Positions 1-10,931 of a stretch of DNA of 10,931 nt are shown piece after piece. The DNA is taken from the NCBI GenBank assembly GCA_018650165.1, contig JABIGM010000036.1, positions 1 to 10,931 on the forward strand. The letters run 5' to 3'. Position 1 is the stretch's first letter; each line of letters opens with the position of its first letter. The notes under the pieces were generated by a model. It was not told the DNA's origin, searched no databases, and worked only from the letters and a program-made list of their open reading frames with translations. The DNA comes from Methanobacteriota archaeon. Its GTDB lineage: Archaea; Thermoplasmatota; Poseidoniia; Poseidoniales; Poseidoniaceae. A program made the position numbers and the translations under genes.

Positions 1-1161
1 ACTTGCGCCGCCACCTGTTGAAACGTGCCCCATCTTGTCGATTAATCCACGCTGATTGACTAGAGTTGCAGTGTGACCTCCGCCCATTACGGCATACCCT
101 TCACTCTCCGCACATGCGTTTAGCATCTCGACAGTTCCTAAAGCGAAATCTGACATTTCAAATACACCTGCTGGTCCATTGAGAATGATTGTTCCGGCAC
201 TTTTTATCGCCTTTGAAAGAGCACGAATACTGGTAATTCCCAAATCGAAGATAGGTGCCTCAATCGGCAACTGTTCGAGCGAATAATCCGCTCTACTTCC
301 TTCTAGATTTAGCGCGACATCACTTGGCATGATTATACATTCAGGGAAGTCTACGAGGAGCTTGCTTGCTGTAGCGATTGTGCTGTCCCAATTATCTTTA
401 AGTTCGTTTTTTAGGAAGGTGATGTTTACTTCTCCAAGATCAATTCCCGAAAGATATAGGAATAGATTTGCAACTCCGCCAGTGACCCATATATGGTCAC
501 AAATATCGCCACGAAGCATGTTATCGGCTACAATCACAGAATCATCTACCTTGATTCCACCAAGAACTGCAATACAAGGGCGCTTTGGATTTTCCAAAGC
601 CTGACCGAGTTTTGATAATTCATGATTCATCAATTCTCCAGCAATACAAGGAAGAGCATTAGTGAATCCTACAATCGAAGGGGTGTTACGATGAGCACAA
701 GCGAATGCATCATTGACAAAAGCATCAGCGACGAGAGATAGATTTTGTACCATACGTGTTTCAGAAAGTGCAACAAAATCGCCTTTAGCGTTATTTTCTT
801 CTTCATCCATACGTACATTGTTCAGCATTAACAACTCGCCATTTTCAAGACTTTCAATTGCCGTAAGGGCCTTCTTACCATAGATGTCATCAACCCATTT
901 GACATTTCGACCAAGCAAGCGCCCTAACTCTCTTGAATGACCTATTGTGGATGTGAAATCCTTTTTACCAGGCCTAGATTGATGTGCCAATATTACAACT
1001 TTAGATTTAGAAAGTCGATTCAATGTCGGTATAATCAACCGAATTCTAGTATCATCTAGGAAGACATTTCTTTCAGGGTCCATAGGAGAATTGATGTCTA
1101 CGCGCACCAATACAGTGCGCCCGTCGAGGTCGACCTCATCGAGGTTGAGGACCTTTGCCAT
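1..1161 (-). CDS. pgk: Phosphoglycerate kinase (3' end runs off the left edge of the window)
   Basis: Hand translation from the ATG at 1161 gives MAKVLNLDEVDLDGRTVLVRVDINSP...LAHQSRPG...FVNDAFACAHR...NGPAGVFE...MGGGHTA...HVSTGGGAS. These are canonical PGK motifs in one frame (387 codons). It is missing from the ORF track because there is no stop codon inside the window. Confidence 0.98.
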   Translation of the reverse strand, partial: MAKVLNLDEVDLDGRTVLVRVDINSPMDPERNVFLDDTRIRLIIPTLNRLSKSKVVILAHQSRPGKKDFTSTIGHSRELGRLLGRNVKWVDDIYGKKALTAIESLENGELLMLNNVRMDEEENNAKGDFVALSETRMVQNLSLVADAFVNDAFACAHRNTPSIVGFTNALPCIAGELMNHELSKLGQALENPKRPCIAVLGGIKVDDSVIVADNMLRGDICDHIWVTGGVANLFLYLSGIDLGEVNITFLKNELKDNWDSTIATASKLLVDFPECIIMPSDVALNLEGSRADYSLEQLPIEAPIFDLGITSIRALSKAIKSAGTIILNGPAGVFEMSDFALGTVEMLNACAESEGYAVMGGGHTATLVNQRGLIDKMGHVSTGGGAS

Positions 1162-1259: not shown

Positions 1260-2213
1260 ATGGTAAGCATGGCGCGCGAGAACCCATTGGAAGGTCCTCG
1301 TAAACGTGCAAAAACTACCACTTCTTCATTCGGTGTATCGAAACGTGAAGGTCACGATTCTTCGGTCTACTATGGCGCAAGAATGTATGATGACTTAGTT
1401 TCTCAAAGAGACGTGGGAGAAACAGTAGAATTCCCACCAGAATTAGAAAATCTTGTAATCAATGGAGATTCAAAGTCGATGCCAATTCCAGATAACTGTG
1501 TTCATCTTGTTGTAACATCTCCACCCTATAATGCATCTAAAGCATATGATGAAGATTTGTCTTTGGCAGAATATCTTAGTTTGTTGCACGAGGTTTTCGC
1601 TGAGTGCTACCGTGTTCTTGCTCCAGGTGGACGTATGGTAGTAAATGTGGCTAATTTGGGCCGCAAACCATACATTCCCTTATCCAGCCATATTAATCTG
1701 ATAATGCACGAAATTGGTTTCATGCATCGTGGCGAAGTGATATGGGATAAATCTGCAAGTGCAGGCTCATCTTGCGCATGGGGGTCATTCCAGTCTGCAT
1801 CAAATCCATGTTTACGAGATATACATGAGTATCTCTTGTTGTTCTCCAAGGGAGATTACAAACTTCCACGAACCAAAAACGAGAGGGCTGAAGGAAGGAT
1901 TGATACTATTGGTCGTGACGAATTCATCCAGCAAACCAAATCGATCTGGTCGTTCCCTACCGAGTCTGCAAAAAGAGTCAATCACCCAGCGCCGTTTCCG
2001 GTTGAATTACCAAAACGTTGCATCGAGATGTTTACTTTCACAGGTGACGTGGTATTAGATCCGTTCTTAGGATCGGGTACAACCGCAGTCGCAGCTAAAA
2101 TGAGTGGACGCAAATACATTGGTTGTGACTTGTCTGCAGAGTATTGCGCTATCGCTGAAGATAGACTAGCAATGACCGAAGCCTATGTGCCTGTAATTGC
2201 TCAAAGTGAGTAA
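1260..2213 (+). CDS. Site-specific DNA methyltransferase, beta class, N6_N4_Mtase family (probably m4C); start at 1260 or 1269
   Basis: Catalytic motif IV VTSPPY precedes SAM-binding motif I VLDPFLGSGTT (beta permutation), with HPAPFP before motif I. SPPY is typical of N4-cytosine methyltransferases, but the modified base cannot be proven from sequence. Confidence 0.93.
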   Translation: MVSMARENPLEGPRKRAKTTTSSFGVSKREGHDSSVYYGARMYDDLVSQRDVGETVEFPPELENLVINGDSKSMPIPDNCVHLVVTSPPYNASKAYDEDLSLAEYLSLLHEVFAECYRVLAPGGRMVVNVANLGRKPYIPLSSHINLIMHEIGFMHRGEVIWDKSASAGSSCAWGSFQSASNPCLRDIHEYLLLFSKGDYKLPRTKNERAEGRIDTIGRDEFIQQTKSIWSFPTESAKRVNHPAPFPVELPKRCIEMFTFTGDVVLDPFLGSGTTAVAAKMSGRKYIGCDLSAEYCAIAEDRLAMTEAYVPVIAQSE

Positions 2214-2867: not shown

Positions 2868-2919
2868 CATTCCTCCGTCAATGCGAGTCATTTTGAACTA
2901 TTGCCTGCAGGGTGGCCTG

Positions 2920-4137
2920 ATGATGGATGACCTACCCGCACTGGTTGGTCCTGAGGGCGAAGATTGGCGAGTGCCAGTCGGTGAACTTCAGACAAGGCAA
3001 TCGAGCCTTGCTTCAAGTTTGAGAGAATCAGGCCTCAAAGGTGCACTTATTCAAACACCAGTCGATTTGTACTACTACACAGGGGGGCGTCAAAACGGAA
3101 CTCTTCTGGTTACAGCAGAAGGGGATGCACGACTCTTTGTACGCCGCTCATTAGCAAGAGCGAAGTATGAATCAGGTGGCAGCGACTCCCCCCATACCGT
3201 GGAAACATTTCCTCGCATGGCCCAATTCACAGAAGAAATTGGTTGCACACCTGCAATGCAATTCGGGGAACTTCCACACGGCTTTGCATCAAATTTTGCT
3301 GAGAAAACGGGAGCAACAGAAGATTGTACCTCAATTGTCCATACTCAACGCGAAGTCAAAAGTGCTTGGGAATTGCAAATGATGGCAGAAGGCGCAGAAA
3401 TTCAATTAGCAATGTTCGAGGCAGTAGAAACCCTCGGTGGTGAAGGCGTATCTGAAATCGAATTAGTTGCGGCAGCAGAGGCAGTTAGTAGAGCCGCTGG
3501 ATTTGGTGGAAATGTGCAGATGAGACGTTTCCCATTACAATGCGATAGAGGGGTAATTGTTTCAGGTCGCGCAGGAGGGATACCATCATTTTTTGATTCT
3601 GCAATTGGAGGAACTGGGCCACATCCGATGGCTTCGATGGGTAGCGGTTTTTCTACAATCAAAGCGAATGAACCCGTACTCGTCGATTTGGTACATTTGC
3701 ATCGCGGATATGTTGTTGATGCAACGCGAATGTTTGTCGCAGGTTCACTTTCTTCACAATGGCAGGAGCGCTTAGAAGACATGGTGGCTGTGAAGGAGGT
3801 TGTAGTTGATATTCTAGATCAAGGCCTTGACTGTTCAGAAGCCTGGAGGCAAGGGCTTGCTTTGGCAGAAGAGTTTGGTCACGGTGATAATCTGATGGGA
3901 ATGGCGCCAGACCAATCCCGTTTCCTCGGCCATTCAGTTGGTCTTCAGTTAGATGAATCCCCTGTGGTCGCAGAAGGGTTTGACCGCCCGTTGCCAATAG
4001 GTGGAACAATGGCAATCGAGCCTAAGGTAGTTTATGCGGATGGTAGTATTGGCAGCGAAGATACCTGGGTTAGAGATGAAGAGGGGATGCGTCCAATCAC
4101 AATGGATGGGGCTGTTCCTTGGATTACAGAATGGTGA
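2920..4137 (+). CDS. M24 family Xaa-Pro peptidase (prolidase/aminopeptidase P-like) with creatinase-type N-terminal domain
   Basis: N-domain DLYYYTG. All five metal ligands are recognisable: VLVDL, VDATR, FLGHSVGL, MAIEP, GSEDT. The start at 2920/2923 (MMDD) is preferred to 2881 because GGTGG lies just upstream. Confidence 0.93.
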   Translation: MMDDLPALVGPEGEDWRVPVGELQTRQSSLASSLRESGLKGALIQTPVDLYYYTGGRQNGTLLVTAEGDARLFVRRSLARAKYESGGSDSPHTVETFPRMAQFTEEIGCTPAMQFGELPHGFASNFAEKTGATEDCTSIVHTQREVKSAWELQMMAEGAEIQLAMFEAVETLGGEGVSEIELVAAAEAVSRAAGFGGNVQMRRFPLQCDRGVIVSGRAGGIPSFFDSAIGGTGPHPMASMGSGFSTIKANEPVLVDLVHLHRGYVVDATRMFVAGSLSSQWQERLEDMVAVKEVVVDILDQGLDCSEAWRQGLALAEEFGHGDNLMGMAPDQSRFLGHSVGLQLDESPVVAEGFDRPLPIGGTMAIEPKVVYADGSIGSEDTWVRDEEGMRPITMDGAVPWITEW

Positions 4138-4141
4138 TATT

Positions 4142-4408
4142 ATGAGTAATGAAATAATTTTAGATGAAGATTTCACAGAGAAAATGACAGACTGGGATGA
4201 GTCTGATGTAGGAAAAAGAATCGCAAAGAGAGTTACTTCAAACGGCACATATTTCAATGAAATTATCGTTCAAGTGTTTTGCCAATATTGTGCCTCAGAA
4301 TTCATCGGTCCAGCAAGAGAAGCTGGTGGATTTTTGGGCGGTCATGAATGTTTCCATGCATGGGAAGTCTCACAAGCCATCGGCCGTGAGGACGGACTGG
4401 TGGAGTGA
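4142..4408 (+). CDS. Small acidic protein with a C2H2-like zinc finger (88 aa)
   Basis: The ATG at 4142 follows GGTGAT (4133-4138), which overlaps the peptidase stop. Motif C47-QY-C50-x3-F-x10-L-x2-H68-x3-H72. The ORF-track start at 4034 overlaps the peptidase and is unlikely. Confidence 0.8.
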   Translation: MSNEIILDEDFTEKMTDWDESDVGKRIAKRVTSNGTYFNEIIVQVFCQYCASEFIGPAREAGGFLGGHECFHAWEVSQAIGREDGLVE

Positions 4409-4409
4409 A

Positions 4410-5195
4410 ATGGCCAAACCGTATTCTTCAAGTCATATTGGGTTCGTATCCTCTGGTTTTACAGAAATGCGCCTCTCAGGTGCCGTAAAAGAACAACTTG
4501 TAGAGATGCTTGTTGCAGAAATCGACCGTATGGTTCCAGCGATGGAGTCTGCAACTCTTTCAGCAACTCCCGACAAGAAGACATTGGACGATACTAACCG
4601 CACTCGACTAAATTACAATCGTACTAGAGAATTGATGATTGAAAGATTATCGGATTTAGAGAGCGTAGGCTCAGAGGCAGTTCAAGCGGGAATTGAACAC
4701 CTAGAGACCTATCTAAAACGTACACTAAACAACGCCGAAATGGCTGCATCAAAAGACCGAGTTAACACGATTAAACCACGGCATATTCAAACGGCAACGA
4801 TTCCGGTAATCGATGAAACAAATAGTGAAATGGCACCTCCTAAAGAGGTAGAAGAAGACCTTCTAGAGGGGCAGGTTAGTGGCTCTGCTCTAACGCCAAT
4901 GGTCTTGAGAAAATTGGCTCGTTCTTTTGGGGGAATGCCGATTACAGATGCTGCAGTCGAGGAACTTCTCCTATTGTATTACGAAGTTGTAGATGAGACC
5001 GGACAAAACATCCGAGAGCACGCTCAATTAGGAAGTAATCCAGCTGGGTTTATTGATTCATTAGACAAAATGAAGGATTTGATGATGCTTGGATGGATTC
5101 GCAGAATGTTAGTTCGCGCCGGCAAAGATGCTGACGAACGTGGATACAAGAGAATCGATGTTGAACAACTGATTAATCTCGACCCATTTGAGTAA
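4410..5195 (+). CDS. Multi-histone-fold protein (apparent triplet, 261 aa)
   Basis: The ATG at 4410 follows GGAGTGA. Fold 2 (aa ~66-130, RLNYNRTRELM...SVGSEAVQAGIEHLETYLKRTLNNAEMAASKDRVNTIKPRHIQTA) has histone alpha1-L1-alpha2-L2-alpha3 spacing. Fold 1 (aa ~4-62, ...MRLSGAVKEQLVEMLVAEIDRMVPAMESATLSATPDKKTLDD) and fold 3 (aa ~160-258, LTPMVLRKLARSFGGMPITDAAVEE...AGKDADERGYKRIDVEQL) are more divergent. Recognised by eye, with no HMM run. Confidence 0.78.
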   Translation: MAKPYSSSHIGFVSSGFTEMRLSGAVKEQLVEMLVAEIDRMVPAMESATLSATPDKKTLDDTNRTRLNYNRTRELMIERLSDLESVGSEAVQAGIEHLETYLKRTLNNAEMAASKDRVNTIKPRHIQTATIPVIDETNSEMAPPKEVEEDLLEGQVSGSALTPMVLRKLARSFGGMPITDAAVEELLLLYYEVVDETGQNIREHAQLGSNPAGFIDSLDKMKDLMMLGWIRRMLVRAGKDADERGYKRIDVEQLINLDPFE

Positions 5196-5222
5196 TTCAT
5201 GTTAGATTGCACCACAACCAGT

Positions 5223-5543
5223 TCAAAGTAAAAATTCCAATTGTCCTGAGATTAGTAAAATGAGTATTACTACTTGCATTGTAACAATTACCCAACTAAT
5301 AACCACTGTTTTTTGAGCAAGTTCAGTGCCCGGATGTCCCGGATGTGCGAGAGTCATATTTCTCTCCTTAATGGCATAGTACAAACAAGGAACCGACATA
5401 ATGAGTAACATCAACCAAAAACTAGCGACTCCCAAAATTATAATCCACTTAGAACTGGTTTCCGGCCAAGATACCACTTCATTTACATCAGCGTCATCCA
5501 ATTGTAAATCAACTTCAATACTCTGTGGAGTCGATGTTTGCAT
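5223..5543 (-). CDS. Small membrane protein with two hydrophobic segments (CD225/dispanin-like or DUF4190-like topology)
   Basis: MQTSTPQSIEVDLQLDDADV...WIIILGVASFWLMLLIMSVPCLYYAIK...ELAQKTVVISWVIVTMQVVILILLIS. The start at 5543 is preferred to 5576 because an AT-rich TTAATATTTTT box lies about 25 nt upstream on the minus strand. Confidence 0.7.
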   Translation of the reverse strand: MQTSTPQSIEVDLQLDDADVNEVVSWPETSSKWIIILGVASFWLMLLIMSVPCLYYAIKERNMTLAHPGHPGTELAQKTVVISWVIVTMQVVILILLISGQLEFLL

Positions 5544-5782: not shown

Positions 5783-6310
5783 ATGGGTAACATGATTGGA
5801 AAGGCAGCTCCGGAATGGAGTGCAGCGGTATACGATAATGGCGAAAAGACAGTTATGTCAAGTGAAAGTCTGGCTGGAAAGTGGTACCTAATTTATTGGT
5901 ATCCTTTCGATTTCACATTCATCTGCCCAACAGAAATTGTAGGTTTTGAAGAACTAAAGGAAGACTTTGAAGACGACGGAATCACCGTAATTGGATGTTC
6001 TACAGATTCATATTTCAGCCACAAGGCTTGGTTCGCAGACTCTGCAACATTCCCTGCCGGAGTTACTCATCCAGTTATCGGTGACACTACACACAGAGTT
6101 ACCAATGATTTCAACATGATGAACGCAGCTCTTGGCTGTGGATTCCGCGGTACTGTTCTTGTAGACCCAGAAGGGGTTGTCAGAATGTATTCAATCAACG
6201 GAATGGATGCAGGAAGATCACCTGCTGAAGTTCTACGTACCTGCCAGGCTGAACAAGTCGGTGGACTATGTGGTGCTAACTGGAAGAAAGGCGACGATTT
6301 CGCTGCTTGA
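5783..6310 (+). CDS. ahpC: 2-Cys peroxiredoxin (AhpC/Prx1 subfamily)
   Basis: Peroxidatic motif YPFDFTFICPTEI (PxxxTxxC), GCSTDS, catalytic Arg in FRGTVLVDPEG, resolving Cys in LCGANW. RBS TGAGGA at 5771-5776. Confidence 0.95.
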   Translation: MGNMIGKAAPEWSAAVYDNGEKTVMSSESLAGKWYLIYWYPFDFTFICPTEIVGFEELKEDFEDDGITVIGCSTDSYFSHKAWFADSATFPAGVTHPVIGDTTHRVTNDFNMMNAALGCGFRGTVLVDPEGVVRMYSINGMDAGRSPAEVLRTCQAEQVGGLCGANWKKGDDFAA

Positions 6311-6686: not shown

Positions 6687-7538
6687 GTGTACTCTGTACT
6701 TCTAGCTGCTTTATTCGCCGGCATAGTGGCAATTCTAGTCACTGTAGCCATTGAGAAATGGGGTGGAATCATTGGAGGAATACTTGGTACTCTTCCTACA
6801 ACCATCGTTCCAGCAACAATCGGAATGTATGTTGAAGGAGGTTCTGATGATCTTGCTACCAGCATGTCACTGATTCCATTTTGGATGCTACTCAATGCTC
6901 TTTTCGTTGCTTCTTGGGTTGTTTATCCTAGAATGAAAGAAGGAGTAACGCTCGCTCAAATGACAGTGGTTTCACTTGGATTCTGGTCTGTTTTGGCTAT
7001 ACTGATGACGATTTCATTAACAGAGGCTCTCAATTATTTTTCAGAGAATGCTGTTGGTGTTGCCGGATTGGTTGCGTTACTTGGGCTTGGTATCTGGATG
7101 ACCTGGGTTCCACAAAAAGCACCAAAGGGAACGAATTCTGTAACAGTGAAGGTACTAATGATGCGCGGATTGGCTGCTGCAACTGCCATCGGAATTGCAG
7201 TTCAATCATCCAGTATGGGCCAGCCAATCATTGCTGGCTTAGCTTCAGTTTTCCCAGCGATTTTCTTGACTACAATGGTAGCATTATGGATGGCTCAAGG
7301 CTCTGATGTTCCAACAGGCGCAGCAGGGCCAATGATGTTAGGGGGCTCTTCAGTGGCTGTTTATTCACTGATTGCGCCGTGGGCGTTACCAGAATATGGA
7401 ATTATTGTTGGCACTCTTATCTGCTGGTTTTCTGCAGTTGTTTCAACCTCAATTCCTGCCTATTCCTATCTCAGGTGGAGGCAATCAAAATTGATTATCG
7501 TTAATTCGTTAGACACCAGTCATACATCGATTGAATAA
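6687..7538 (+). CDS. Polytopic membrane protein made of two homologous halves (DUF3147-like)
   Basis: 283 aa, almost entirely hydrophobic, with roughly 9-10 TM segments by eye. Internal repeat GIIGGILGTLPTTIVPATIGMYVEGGSD versus PIIAGLASVFPAIFLTTMVALWMAQGSD. GTG start. The family label is from recall, not a search. Confidence 0.8.
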   Translation: MYSVLLAALFAGIVAILVTVAIEKWGGIIGGILGTLPTTIVPATIGMYVEGGSDDLATSMSLIPFWMLLNALFVASWVVYPRMKEGVTLAQMTVVSLGFWSVLAILMTISLTEALNYFSENAVGVAGLVALLGLGIWMTWVPQKAPKGTNSVTVKVLMMRGLAAATAIGIAVQSSSMGQPIIAGLASVFPAIFLTTMVALWMAQGSDVPTGAAGPMMLGGSSVAVYSLIAPWALPEYGIIVGTLICWFSAVVSTSIPAYSYLRWRQSKLIIVNSLDTSHTSIE

Positions 7539-7809
7539 TCGGTGCTAGTGATTCTGATTTTTCTGTTAATTTGTAGGAAATCGACTTTGAATCACTTACC
7601 TCGCGCTTCACTAACCCATATTCTTCAAGTTCATTCAACCGTCTTGAAACGGTTGTCCCCGATGAATCCACGCTAGATTTTAGTTTAGTGAAAATCAGTG
7701 AACCACTTGCTTTATGCAGTACCAAAAGAATGTGTAAAGACTTTGATTTTGTCAAAACCTCTAGAAGATCGTCAACCTTGGCATAAACTGGGTCGCATTC
7801 AATTTCCAT
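7501..7809 (-). CDS. HxlR/DUF24 (MarR-like) winged-helix transcriptional regulator
   Basis: 102 aa: LLEVLTKSKSLHILLVL...LIFTKLKSSVDSSGTTVSRRLNELEEYGLVKREV...SYKLTEKSESLAPIIQSMYDW matches the HxlR pattern (LxxRLxELExxGLVxR, YxLTxxG, LxPIL..L..W). Confidence 0.9.
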   Translation of the reverse strand: MEIECDPVYAKVDDLLEVLTKSKSLHILLVLHKASGSLIFTKLKSSVDSSGTTVSRRLNELEEYGLVKREVSDSKSISYKLTEKSESLAPIIQSMYDWCLTN

Positions 7810-7913: not shown

Positions 7914-10900
7914 ATGCAGAAGTTGGTAAGGTCGCCTGTATTGATTTCTTGCCTATTGGCTGCAACAATGCTAAGCGTGATGTTTTCGCCCATTATGACG
8001 CAAAGTCCCATTCTCGAAAATAGTACGGATAACTCGAGAAGCGATGAGTTCTCAACTTGGACACTATCTCCTACAACAGGACCGCATACTGGAGGGACAA
8101 ACCTCACATTAACGACTACCGGCCTTTCATCATATTTTGAAGAAAGTAATTGGGAAAATTTCACAATTGATTATTCTGCAGATGTAGGTAAATTCTCATC
8201 AGTAGCAGTCGATTCCAATGGTGAACTTCACATTTCATATCGGGATGCTACAAATGGGCATTTAAAGTACGCATCCAATGCAGGTGGAACTTGGACTAAC
8301 TATCCAATAGACAACGGCGGGGGATACATTGGTAGATACACATCAATTGACGTAGATTCCAACGATAATGTACACATCTCTTACGGTAACCTAAATTCTT
8401 GGGACCTAAAGTATGCGACAAATGTCGCTGGCTCGTGGAGTCGAAGTACAATCGACGATGGAGGCACTGGCCAAGCGGGTATGTACTCCTCGCTAGTAAT
8501 TGATTCAAATGATTTGATTCATGTTTCTTATTGGGGCCGAAATTCTGACCTTAAGTATGCTGCTAAATCAGCAAGCGGGGGAACTTGGGTAGATGAAATA
8601 GTTGAGTGGGGATATATCACGGGAGAATGGACTTCTATTGCGCTTGATTCAAACAATGAACCATTTTTTTCTCATGTGTCTGAAACACACGACCGTGTCG
8701 AAATAGGTTACAAGAGTGGCGGTTATTGGACTACACCGACTGTAGATTCTGGAAGTTCAGGTGAGATTGATAATGGTACATCTATAGCAATAGATTCCAA
8801 TGATGCCAAGCACATTGTCTACTATGATGAAGACAATGGCGATTTGAAGTATGCAGACTTCAACACTCAATCTAACCTATGGCAGAACACAGTTTTGGAT
8901 AGTACTGGCGATGTAGGCAAGTACCCTTCAATTGAAATTGATTCTCAGGATAATATCCACGTGGCATACTACGATAATGGAAATCAAGAATTGAAGTATG
9001 CATATTACGATGGTACTTCTTGGAGTTCCTCTACTTTGGATGAATCTGGAGGAATGCACCCATCTCTTACAATCGATGCAAATGATAACATCTACATTTC
9101 ATACTACGATGATACAAATTCAAACCTCAAGATGATACAAAACATCGTAAATTCGAACGACCCTCTCGGTGAGGTGTCAATCGAGTTTGTAGGCTATGGA
9201 AATGTAACTGGTACGGTACTAGATGATGAGACGATCACATTTTCATCTCCACCAGGTAATATCGATGGAGAAGTAGTAGATTTGGTAATTTGGCTGGAAA
9301 ACGGATCAAACGTCAATCTTCCTGTAAGCTTCGAATATGAAACATATGATTCAGACGGCGATGGCATTCCAAACACCTCTGACGATTGTCCTCAAACCTA
9401 CGGAGATTCCACAATTGACCAAACAGGATGTCCAGACTCAGATGGTGATGGATACAGCAATTCAGGAGATGCATTCCCTAATGAGCCTAGTCAATTCAGT
9501 GATTATGATGATGATGGATGTGGAGATAATCCATCTGGAGTAAATGCTGATGAATTCTCTTACGATACTACACAGTGTACAGATTCTGACTCAGACGGTT
9601 ACGGAGACAATCTTAGCGGAAACAACCCGGACCACTTCCCTTCAGATTCTAGTCAATGGAACGATACAGACGGTGATGGTTTTGGCGATAATCCTCTAGG
9701 AAACAACTCCGATAATTGCCCATCAGAAGCAGGGAATTCGACTATGCCTGGCCGAGGTTGCCTTGATTCTGATGGAGATGGATATGCTAACACATTCGAT
9801 GCATTCCCGTTCGATGCCAGTGAAACTCACGATACAGATAGTGATGGGGTTGGCGACAACTCCGACGCTTTCCCAGTAAATAGCATGGAACAATTCGATG
9901 CTGACGGAGATGGTGTTGGTGATAATGCAGATGCTTTCCCTGACGATGCCAATGAAACCAATGACAGAGATGGTGACGGTGTTGGAGATAATTCAGATGC
10001 TTTCCCTGATAATGCAAATGAATCCACAGATTCAGACGGTGACGGTATTGGCGATAATGCGGATGAATATCCTTTGGTTGACAATTTCATCGATTCTGAT
10101 GATGATGGAATCTTAGATTTACAAGACGCATTCCCGGGCGACGCAACTCAAACAAATGATTCAGATGGTGATGGATATGGAGATAACCTCTCAGGAAATA
10201 ATCCTGACCAATTCACGAATGTATCTACGCAATGGGCAGATACAGATGGTGATGGATATGGCGACAATTGGGGTAACTCATCTTGGAACTCTACACGCGT
10301 GATTGATTTCCCCGGAGAATTTGTTGAGAATGCAGAATTAGCTGACCATTGCCCAACTATTTCAGGCAACTCTACTGCGAATGACATCTTTGGCTGCCCA
10401 GATGGAGACGGCGATGGAATAGCAGATCAATATGACGAAGTAAATGGGTCAGCCGTAATAGAAGAAGAGCCTGAACAAGAAACCCAAGATGAATCAAGTT
10501 CTGAAGAAGAATCATACATAGATTCACTACTTTCTGGAAATACAGAAACTATTACTCAAACGGTTGGTTTCGGGGCTATATTACTTGCAGTCCTCGCTTT
10601 GCTACAAACCAATCTTGTAGCAGGTTTACTTCCTGATGCCTTTAGATGGGTTCAAGTTTTACGTCGCTCGAATAAACTTTCAAAAGAAGAAATCAAGGAA
10701 CTGAATTACCTTCAATCTCTTGTCCAAGCATACTACTATGATATTGAATCACTATTCGAAGAACTCGACCAACTTAGGTCTGACTTGACCGGTAGGTATA
10801 CCAATAACGAAATCAGCAAAAAGACCAGAGAAAAGATCGTGACATTGATTGAAGATTTGCAAACTATGGACTCTGATAAGATTGCATCTATTGCGAACAG

Positions 10901-10931
10901 TGAGGCCTATTTCGGCCTAGCAGAAACAACA
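7914..10931 (+). CDS. Large cell-surface type I membrane protein: signal peptide, IPT/TIG domain with inserted 7-blade beta-propeller, TSP3-like Ca-binding repeats, TM helix, cytoplasmic helical domain (3' end runs off the window)
   Basis: Hand translation gives 1006 codons with no stop, from MQKLVRSPVLISCLLAATMLSVMFSP (signal-like) to ...AYFGLAETT. TM segment VGFGAILLAVLALLQTNLVAGLL starts at about 10563. It is missing from the ORF track because there is no stop codon inside the window. Confidence 0.93.
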   Translation, partial: MQKLVRSPVLISCLLAATMLSVMFSPIMTQSPILENSTDNSRSDEFSTWTLSPTTGPHTGGTNLTLTTTGLSSYFEESNWENFTIDYSADVGKFSSVAVDSNGELHISYRDATNGHLKYASNAGGTWTNYPIDNGGGYIGRYTSIDVDSNDNVHISYGNLNSWDLKYATNVAGSWSRSTIDDGGTGQAGMYSSLVIDSNDLIHVSYWGRNSDLKYAAKSASGGTWVDEIVEWGYITGEWTSIALDSNNEPFFSHVSETHDRVEIGYKSGGYWTTPTVDSGSSGEIDNGTSIAIDSNDAKHIVYYDEDNGDLKYADFNTQSNLWQNTVLDSTGDVGKYPSIEIDSQDNIHVAYYDNGNQELKYAYYDGTSWSSSTLDESGGMHPSLTIDANDNIYISYYDDTNSNLKMIQNIVNSNDPLGEVSIEFVGYGNVTGTVLDDETITFSSPPGNIDGEVVDLVIWLENGSNVNLPVSFEYETYDSDGDGIPNTSDDCPQTYGDSTIDQTGCPDSDGDGYSNSGDAFPNEPSQFSDYDDDGCGDNPSGVNADEFSYDTTQCTDSDSDGYGDNLSGNNPDHFPSDSSQWNDTDGDGFGDNPLGNNSDNCPSEAGNSTMPGRGCLDSDGDGYANTFDAFPFDASETHDTDSDGVGDNSDAFPVNSMEQFDADGDGVGDNADAFPDDANETNDRDGDGVGDNSDAFPDNANESTDSDGDGIGDNADEYPLVDNFIDSDDDGILDLQDAFPGDATQTNDSDGDGYGDNLSGNNPDQFTNVSTQWADTDGDGYGDNWGNSSWNSTRVIDFPGEFVENAELADHCPTISGNSTANDIFGCPDGDGDGIADQYDEVNGSAVIEEEPEQETQDESSSEEESYIDSLLSGNTETITQTVGFGAILLAVLALLQTNLVAGLLPDAFRWVQVLRRSNKLSKEEIKELNYLQSLVQAYYYDIESLFEELDQLRSDLTGRYTNNEISKKTREKIVTLIEDLQTMDSDKIASIANSEAYFGLAETT
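8148..9140 (+). repeat. Seven ~46-49 aa beta-propeller blade repeats (coding)
   Basis: The consensus W...(I/V/L)D...G.Y.SI.IDSND..HISYY......LKYA occurs 7 times, for example GKFSSVAVDSNGELHISY, GRYTSIDVDSNDNVHISY and GKYPSIEIDSQDNIHVAYY. Confidence 0.9.
9348..10437 (+). repeat. Fourteen DxDxDG thrombospondin-type-3-like Ca-binding repeats, including 66-bp tandem units
   Basis: Motifs such as DSDGDGIPN, DTDGDGFGDN and DADGDGVGDNADAFP. Units start at 9765, 9831, 9897, 9963 and 10029 (66-bp period), then at 10092 and 10158. Confidence 0.92.

Follow-up and report, generated by a model that had tools for sequence, protein, structure and literature searches.

The locus described here raises the question of how many histone folds are joined in a single archaeal protein, whether any of them has to find its partner in a second chain, and what such a protein would do in the cell. 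The protein, of 261 amino acids (aa), is encoded at 4410..5195 on the forward strand of contig JABIGM010000036.1 (Poseidoniaceae, assembly GCA_018650165.1), a stretch of 10,931 nucleotides (nt) that is called the window below. It is well conserved and unusual in structure, and is very probably a member of a published family of multi-histone-fold proteins nearly confined to the Poseidoniales, made of two tethered pseudodimers, each formed within the chain and the second of them contracted. The family is already known and has been catalogued in two surveys, and the gene adds no new kind of thing. What is added here is controlled sequence evidence for a C-terminal module (C-module) that is a contracted duplicate of the N-terminal doublet, as well as a divergent clade outside the class Poseidoniia. 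The analysis also accounts for the three folds counted by eye in an earlier note on this DNA, as against four in the literature. The gene and the segments of its product are the following, all on the forward strand.

4410..5195, forward strand: gene of the multi-histone-fold protein, stop codon included; open frame of 261 aa
4419..4595, forward strand: histone fold 1 (aa 4-62), with alpha1, L1 (MRLS), a 29-residue alpha2 and L2 (KKTL), without alpha3; from the AlphaFold2 model and a doublet match
4605..4799, forward strand: histone fold 2 (aa 66-130), with TIKPRH at L2-alpha3, net basic; from Pfam, profile and structure matches
4800..4886, forward strand: disordered acidic linker (aa 131-159); from the AlphaFold2 confidence and the composition
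4896..5030, forward strand: first part of the C-module (aa 163-207), alpha1-L1-alpha2, a putative copy of fold 1 ("fold 3"); from AlphaFold2 and hhalign
5040..5174, forward strand: second part of the C-module (aa 211-255), an extra helix (211-225) and then alpha2C-L2-alpha3 (228-255), a putative internally deleted copy of fold 2 ("fold 4"); from AlphaFold2 and hhalign

Architecture of the protein

The full-length chain was modelled with AlphaFold2 on a 20-sequence alignment (mean predicted local distance difference test, pLDDT, 77.5). For fold 1 the model agreed with what had been read by eye, namely an L1 of MRLS, a long alpha2 and a KKTL motif: alpha1 covers residues 7-14, the L1 bridge lies at 21-22 within MRLS, and alpha2 extends from 24 to 52. 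KKTL (56-59) falls within a low-confidence stretch (55-65, pLDDT < 50) and no alpha3 helix comes after it. Fold 2 follows directly, with alpha1 at 69-78, alpha2 at 88-115, an L2 bridge at 120-121 and alpha3 at 123-129.

Fold 2 is the only complete, sequence-detectable fold of the protein. When the whole protein was searched with Pfam, it was the only fold seen (Histone PF00125 at aa 67-129, E 5e-5, 23.9 bits vs. a cut-off of 26.4), and its isolated segment scored 27.3 bits with the same model. The segment has an isoelectric point (pI) of 9.4, and fold 2 is net positive in most family members checked. A profile of the N-terminal part of the family matched the archaeal histone HmvA with E 3.7e-7, as well as H2A.Z and H3, with fold 2 carrying the match each time, and the fold 2 structure superposed on 1ku5_B with Z 6.2 and a root-mean-square deviation (rmsd) of 1.4 Å over 66 aligned residues. 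A phmmer search of the single protein against PDB sequences gave chance-level matches only (uL30, E 0.18).

Exhaustive structural comparison (VIA-align) of residues 1-134 against PDB chains placed both folds together on known doublets. The matches were Melbournevirus 7n8n_A (Z 13.3, rmsd 2.5 Å, 132 aligned), Methanopyrus kandleri 1f1e (Z 12.2, 3.0 Å, 125 aligned), Sos 1q9c (Z 11.3, 3.0 Å, 121 aligned) and Thermus 1wwi (Z 9.8, 3.2 Å, 124 aligned). In Foldseek, the leading matches of the N-terminal part were all single-chain histone doublets; against the PDB neither model gave a match at E <= 0.001, and most of the leading ranks were taken by histone doublets and by lids of RuvBL. Because residues 1-134 align to single-chain histone doublets and the fold 2 profile matches histones, folds 1 and 2 are predicted to form an intramolecular histone pseudodimer, in line with the fused doublet, with fold 2 almost directly after fold 1, that the earlier note had described.

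In the region at 4596-4790 (aa 63-127), fold 2 is like eukaryotic H2A in two motifs: RTRLNYNRTRELM aligns with RAGLQFPVGRIHRxL of H2A, and TIKPRHI (TIKPRHL in most relatives) aligns with ITPRHLQLAI of H2A. The best-scoring PDB sequences include chimeras of H2B and H2A.Z in a single chain (E 1e-5 to 1e-3). This likeness in sequence could be a matter of convergence.

The composition and the linker were as first noted. The recount gave exactly 43 D/E and 31 K/R, i.e., a net charge of -12 and a pI of 4.96, and the acidic linker, placed by eye at aa ~131-158, corresponds to residues 131-159, which are modelled as disordered (pLDDT 34-43) and hold 1 K/R vs. 8 D/E (net charge -7). Across the family the linker varies in sequence and in length (25-38 aa) and is net acidic in all 20 of the 20 members checked. 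The alignments likewise bear out that the canonical R...D pair is altered in every fold: its two positions are K and N in fold 1, V and H in fold 2, and Y and Q in the C-module. K-T and T-I-K are retained in the L2 loops.

The C-module (aa 160-258) is modelled with five helices: 163-174, 180-207 (a full-length alpha2 of 28 residues), 211-225, 228-243 and 252-255. Predicted alone, it reached a pLDDT of 87 and a predicted template modelling score (pTM) of 0.78, with bridge residues only at aa 178 in L1 and aa 249 in L2; the same single residues were bridged in the full-length model. Since these are the only bridge residues in the domain model, L1 and L2 are taken to pair within the chain, a pairing deduced from the bridge-residue assignments of the models. 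ESM Atlas models of family members have the same C-module fold (template modelling, TM, score 0.93-0.94, rmsd 1.1-1.4 Å over 105 residues).

Results of the profile-profile comparison suggest where this module came from. Aligned with hhalign, the N-terminal and C-terminal halves of the family matched each other with 91.8% probability (E 7.5e-7, 94 columns). Residues 160-207 fell on alpha1-L1-alpha2 of fold 1 (fold 1 vs. fold 3 alone: 92% probability, E 5.9e-7), and residues 228-254 fell on aa 100-126 of fold 2, that is, on alpha2C-L2-alpha3, with ~25 residues, comprising L1 and the first part of alpha2, missing in between. A reversed alignment and 20 column-shuffled alignments used as controls all gave E >= 0.03. 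The divergent clade independently yielded the same register of the two halves (E 7.7e-6), comparisons across the clades gave 8e-6 and 5e-5, and the C-module of the divergent clade carries a canonical histone L2-alpha3, RGKKTIDVEEI. We infer from these profiles and models that the C-module, of ~100 aa, is probably an ancient contracted duplicate of the N-terminal doublet. The chain would thus hold four histone-fold-derived segments in two predicted pseudodimers, none of which needs a partner in trans.

This differs from the earlier note, which had read aa ~160-258 as one expanded third fold and had concluded that, the number of folds being odd, one would stay free and have to pair in trans. On that account folds 1 and 2 form a pseudodimer and the unpaired third fold makes the protein dimerise, bridge or polymerise, and we consider it very improbable. 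Its appeal is easily seen, for the C-module profile matches HmvA (E 6.4e-4) in two stretches, HmvA residues 2-35 (first part of the module) and 41-64 (second part); it aligns to single histones as one fold with a ~40-residue insertion (TAF12 likewise), and just one L1 and one L2 can be recognised in aa 160-258. The eye therefore counts one expanded fold. Yet helix 180-207 is already a full-length alpha2, and the profiles tie the whole C-module to the whole doublet, not to one fold. The module is also predicted with confidence as a monomer, with L1 and L2 bridged within the chain in both AlphaFold2 models and the same fold in its ESM Atlas relatives. A complex prediction with two copies of the C-terminal domain scored 0.08, which is under the mark and bears neither way on pairing in trans.

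Very improbable is a C-module that is not histone-derived at all, the doublet being joined instead to a four-helix domain of the AAA+ lid type or to some other unrelated domain: although lids give its tightest superpositions (MCM 8ouw_6, Z 8.2, rmsd 2.0 Å over 70 residues; RuvBL, Z 7.8, 2.2 Å; also Lon and the clamp-loader delta) and a few members have weak Pfam matches to Cdc6_lid and LonB_AAA-LID, the profiles tie the module to its own doublet, with clean controls, and to HmvA, the divergent clade keeps the histone motif there, and Pfam on the whole chain and on segments found no AAA+ ATPase core. The structural scores against histone doublets are of the same size (1f1e, Z 8.1 with 101 of 105 residues aligned; 1wwi, Z 7.9). 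Half of a histone dimer is said, in work of Alva et al. from 2007, to resemble an AAA+ lid. Such a tie would be expected, because half a histone dimer, made of alpha1-L1 and the alpha2C-L2-alpha3 of its partner, has the twofold helix-strand-helix geometry of the lid. The earlier note had also allowed for an already described doublet family carrying an unrelated C-terminal domain; the family is indeed a described one, and the domain appears to be derived from histones.

Several points count against two pseudodimers in one chain, the second a contracted copy of the first. The whole-chain Pfam score stays under the gathering cut-off, and Pfam on isolated fold 1, on the C-module and on its halves gave no match, so that folds 1, 3 and 4 are invisible to it. 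The L2 region of fold 1 (aa 55-65) is modelled with low confidence, and the middle of the alignment of the two halves, where helix 211-225 falls on alpha1 of fold 2, is weakly supported. Structural Z scores of about 8 for the C-module lie in a grey zone, tied with AAA+ lid domains, and the full-length model leaves undefined how the two modules are oriented to each other (pTM 0.45).

In the ESM Atlas we also observed a cluster of ~118-aa proteins, mostly from Nanobdellota, with weak CBFD_NFYB_HMF and DUF1931 signals, which superpose on the C-module with TM 0.66/0.59 over 85 aligned residues. These may represent another compact single-chain domain derived from histones.

Family, distribution and neighbourhood

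Two surveys describe the family to which the protein is assigned. Schwab et al. 2024 (Nat Commun, supplement of PMC11390915) named it "Poseidoniia double" and stated, based on structural similarity, that its C-terminal domain "likely used to be a double histone fold". A Nat Commun survey of 2026 (PMC13260811) lists a "cluster 5 acidic quadruplet" of 130 sequences with a median length of 262 aa, a pI of 5.2 and four histone-fold motifs, exclusive to Poseidoniales (Poseidoniaceae and Thalassarchaeaceae) and always the sole histone gene, with one related genome outside the order. Identity with the published family was judged by description, i.e., by length, pI, taxa, sole histone gene and architecture: the protein has 261 aa and a pI of 4.96 (vs. 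262 aa and 5.2), comes from Poseidoniales, is encoded by the sole histone-type gene and combines a doublet with a C-terminal domain that looks doublet-derived.

A word-indexed search returned 339 homologues of 259-281 aa with 78-96% identity, from marine metagenomes; part of them bear the name Candidatus Poseidoniaceae or Thermoplasmatota archaeon, and some have the JGI label "histone H3/H4". When 1.84 billion cluster representatives were searched exhaustively with HMMER, only 83 clusters (50% identity) matched, in which full-length members reach as low as 22% identity. In the family alignment, conservation spans the whole length and is strongest in the blocks KTLDDPxRTRLNYNRTRELM and TIKPRH; K57, T58, L59, D61, R64, L67, R71, T120, I121, K122, R124 and H125 are invariant or near-invariant. 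The start at 4410 agrees with the MAKP N-terminus conserved in ~340 homologues. A longer open reading frame (ORF) from 4257 was rejected as the gene start, the conserved family N-terminus being MAKP, and the database forms of 278-281 aa were rejected as a true extension, the extra residues being an out-of-register tail of the upstream ORF that results from upstream start calls. Contigs identical to 4804-5059 and 5097-5247 occur in one RNA-library metatranscriptome run, and such contigs prove neither transcription nor expression rank; nor do the stretches of the gene without contigs carry any weight.

Searches of its own genome (1.75 Mb, 80% complete) with PF00808 and with the protein itself both led to this locus only, so the gene is single-copy there. 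Among 300 genomes sampled from the class, the protein was present in 133 of the 140 genomes of the same family, nearly always in single copy, in 34 of 114 of the sister family, with a genus-by-genus pattern, and in none of 43 of a third family. In a phylum-wide sample, five Thermoplasmatota genomes of two other families, outside the class, had full-length divergent copies (G391, G358, G385, G394 and G362, clade P0171/P0177/P0186/P0187). These copies are 22-26% identical to the 261-aa protein (E 1e-30 to 5e-83) and lie in genomes of 3.1-4.4 Mb on contigs of up to 249 kb; in G362 the match is split, with an in-frame TGA inside. The clade modestly widens the range published as "exclusive". Because it shares the architecture outside Poseidoniia, the combination of doublet and contracted doublet appears to be old and to predate the splits of these lineages.

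Other chromatin proteins were searched for as well. The own genome had no Alba (PF01918) and no HU (PF00216), and two further genomes of the same genus had no Alba. Within the family Alba was present in 26 of 33 genomes, and within the sister family in 1 of 26. For several genera of the sister family, the searched genomes yielded neither Alba nor the histone-like protein.

The other features of the window are listed here by position.

1-1161, reverse strand: phosphoglycerate kinase
1260-2213, forward strand: N6/N4 DNA methylase (PF01555, E 9e-51); no restriction enzyme was recognised among its neighbours
2881..4137, forward strand: Xaa-Pro (M24) peptidase gene (Pfam Peptidase_M24 and Creatinase_N)
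4142..4408, forward strand: Cys/His ORF of 88 aa (CxxC...HxCxH) with an acidic N-terminus; 1 nt separates its TGA stop from the histone ATG
5783-6310, forward strand: AhpC/TSA peroxiredoxin, the part of the window most covered by metatranscriptome contigs
7501-7809, reverse strand: HxlR/MarR-type winged-helix regulator
7914-10931, forward strand: ORF of > 1006 aa running off the window end, with no Pfam match at E <= 0.01

The 88-aa ORF, which had no Pfam match, is possibly co-transcribed with the histone gene. Three further genera of the family keep it here, with 62-73% identity; it is missing in other genera and in the sister family. The M24 peptidase gene adjoins the histone gene in 9 of 11 loci, covering both families of the order, and methylase, M24 peptidase, optional zinc-finger ORF and histone gene form a block conserved across the order. 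The gene of the divergent clade has a different context, with DnaK, DnaJ and TraB neighbours. From neither context do we draw a functional link to the histone gene.

Proposed role

We give about even chances to the protein being a monomeric nucleoid-associated DNA binder that does not wrap DNA. This is suggested because its best-conserved residues are classical DNA-contact positions (Arg-x-Ser, K-T, T-I-K, R64 and R71), because fold 2 is basic, and because no other known chromatin protein was found in its own genome. DNA would be contacted through the N-terminal doublet, by Arg-x-Ser in L1 of fold 1, by K-T and T-I-K in the L2 loops and by a conserved, arginine-rich stretch ahead of alpha1 in fold 2. 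This binding may be modulated by the acidic linker and by the degenerate C-module, or the two may give a second, weaker contact with DNA or protein.

The same architecture might also do without DNA, its histone folds having been recruited as a scaffold between proteins or into some different cellular role, in line with a suggestion of the 2026 survey; this is the main rival reading, less likely in our judgement but a serious possibility. The bridging, polymerisation or NF-Y-like scaffolding proposed in the earlier note would be speculative roles. It would suit a protein that is net acidic as a whole and has lost its R-D pairs, and its near structural matches include double histone folds that are not of chromatin, in Sos and in Spt3/TAFs of SAGA. 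In the survey (PMC13260811), AlphaFold3 and molecular dynamics predicted no DNA wrapping and gave no nucleosome-like complexes, and its authors say that these proteins "might not bind DNA"; together with the net charge of -12, this speaks against the DNA-binding role. At the same time, conservation is best precisely in elements of DNA contact (the K-T and T-I-K motifs in the L2 loops of folds 1 and 2, respectively, R64 ahead of alpha1 of fold 2 and R71 within it), and fold 2 is basic. With neither Alba nor HU found in the own genome, no other recognisable chromatin protein is at hand. An acidic pI is no bar in itself, since halophiles have histones that are acidic and nevertheless bind DNA.

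The archaea of Marine Group II live as uncultured plankton in the surface ocean, and this protein is encoded by their only recognisable histone-type gene, although older genome work had reported them to be without histones (Borrel 2014). The protein is thus an obvious candidate for the organisation of DNA in their cells. An extended form of the DNA-binding role, which we regard as unlikely, would make it the main chromatin protein of Marine Group II: a monomer with three L1-L2 DNA-contact sites on two tethered pseudodimers, looping or bridging DNA rather than wrapping it, with the C-module as a natural half histone dimer folded like an AAA+ lid. If this were true, the C-module would be a living intermediate of the proposed lid-to-histone-fold transition, and the protein would have a way of working not yet seen for histones.

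Comparison with known systems

Canonical HMf-type histones have a single fold of ~65-70 aa, against 261 aa here, where PF00808 scores 13.7 bits vs. a cut-off of 21.4 and the canonical L2-alpha3 RKT motif with its R-D pair is lacking. Closer are the doublets of the M. kandleri HMk and Halobacteria type (1f1e), on which the N-terminal 134 residues superpose as a pseudodimer with ~14% identity. Both folds of HMk are complete and nothing follows them, whereas the present protein has a fold 1 without alpha3, an acidic linker and what appears to be a contracted second pseudodimer.

Viral histone repeats, i.e., the doublets of Marseilleviridae and the triplets and quadruplets of giant viruses, likewise carry several folds per chain, and 7n8n_A was the best match of the N-terminal part. 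These viral proteins consist of eukaryote-like H2B-H2A and H4-H3 paralogues, from which nucleosomes are built. In the 261-aa protein, by contrast, both pairs seem to go back to a single archaeal doublet; the second pair has degenerated, and no nucleosome-like assembly is predicted (PMC13260811). The AAA+ lids share with the C-module ~70 residues at ~2 Å rmsd and a bundle of two helix-strand-helix units with strands paired within the chain; unlike them, the C-module has no ATPase core, a 28-residue alpha2, an extra helix and sequence kinship to histone folds.

Of the two published descriptions, that of the "Poseidoniia double" gives the same reading as ours, which is here backed by profile-profile sequence evidence with controls. 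From the cluster 5 acidic quadruplets nothing essential differs, and what is specified here is that only fold 2 is complete, that fold 1 is without alpha3 and that the second pair is, as modelled, contracted.

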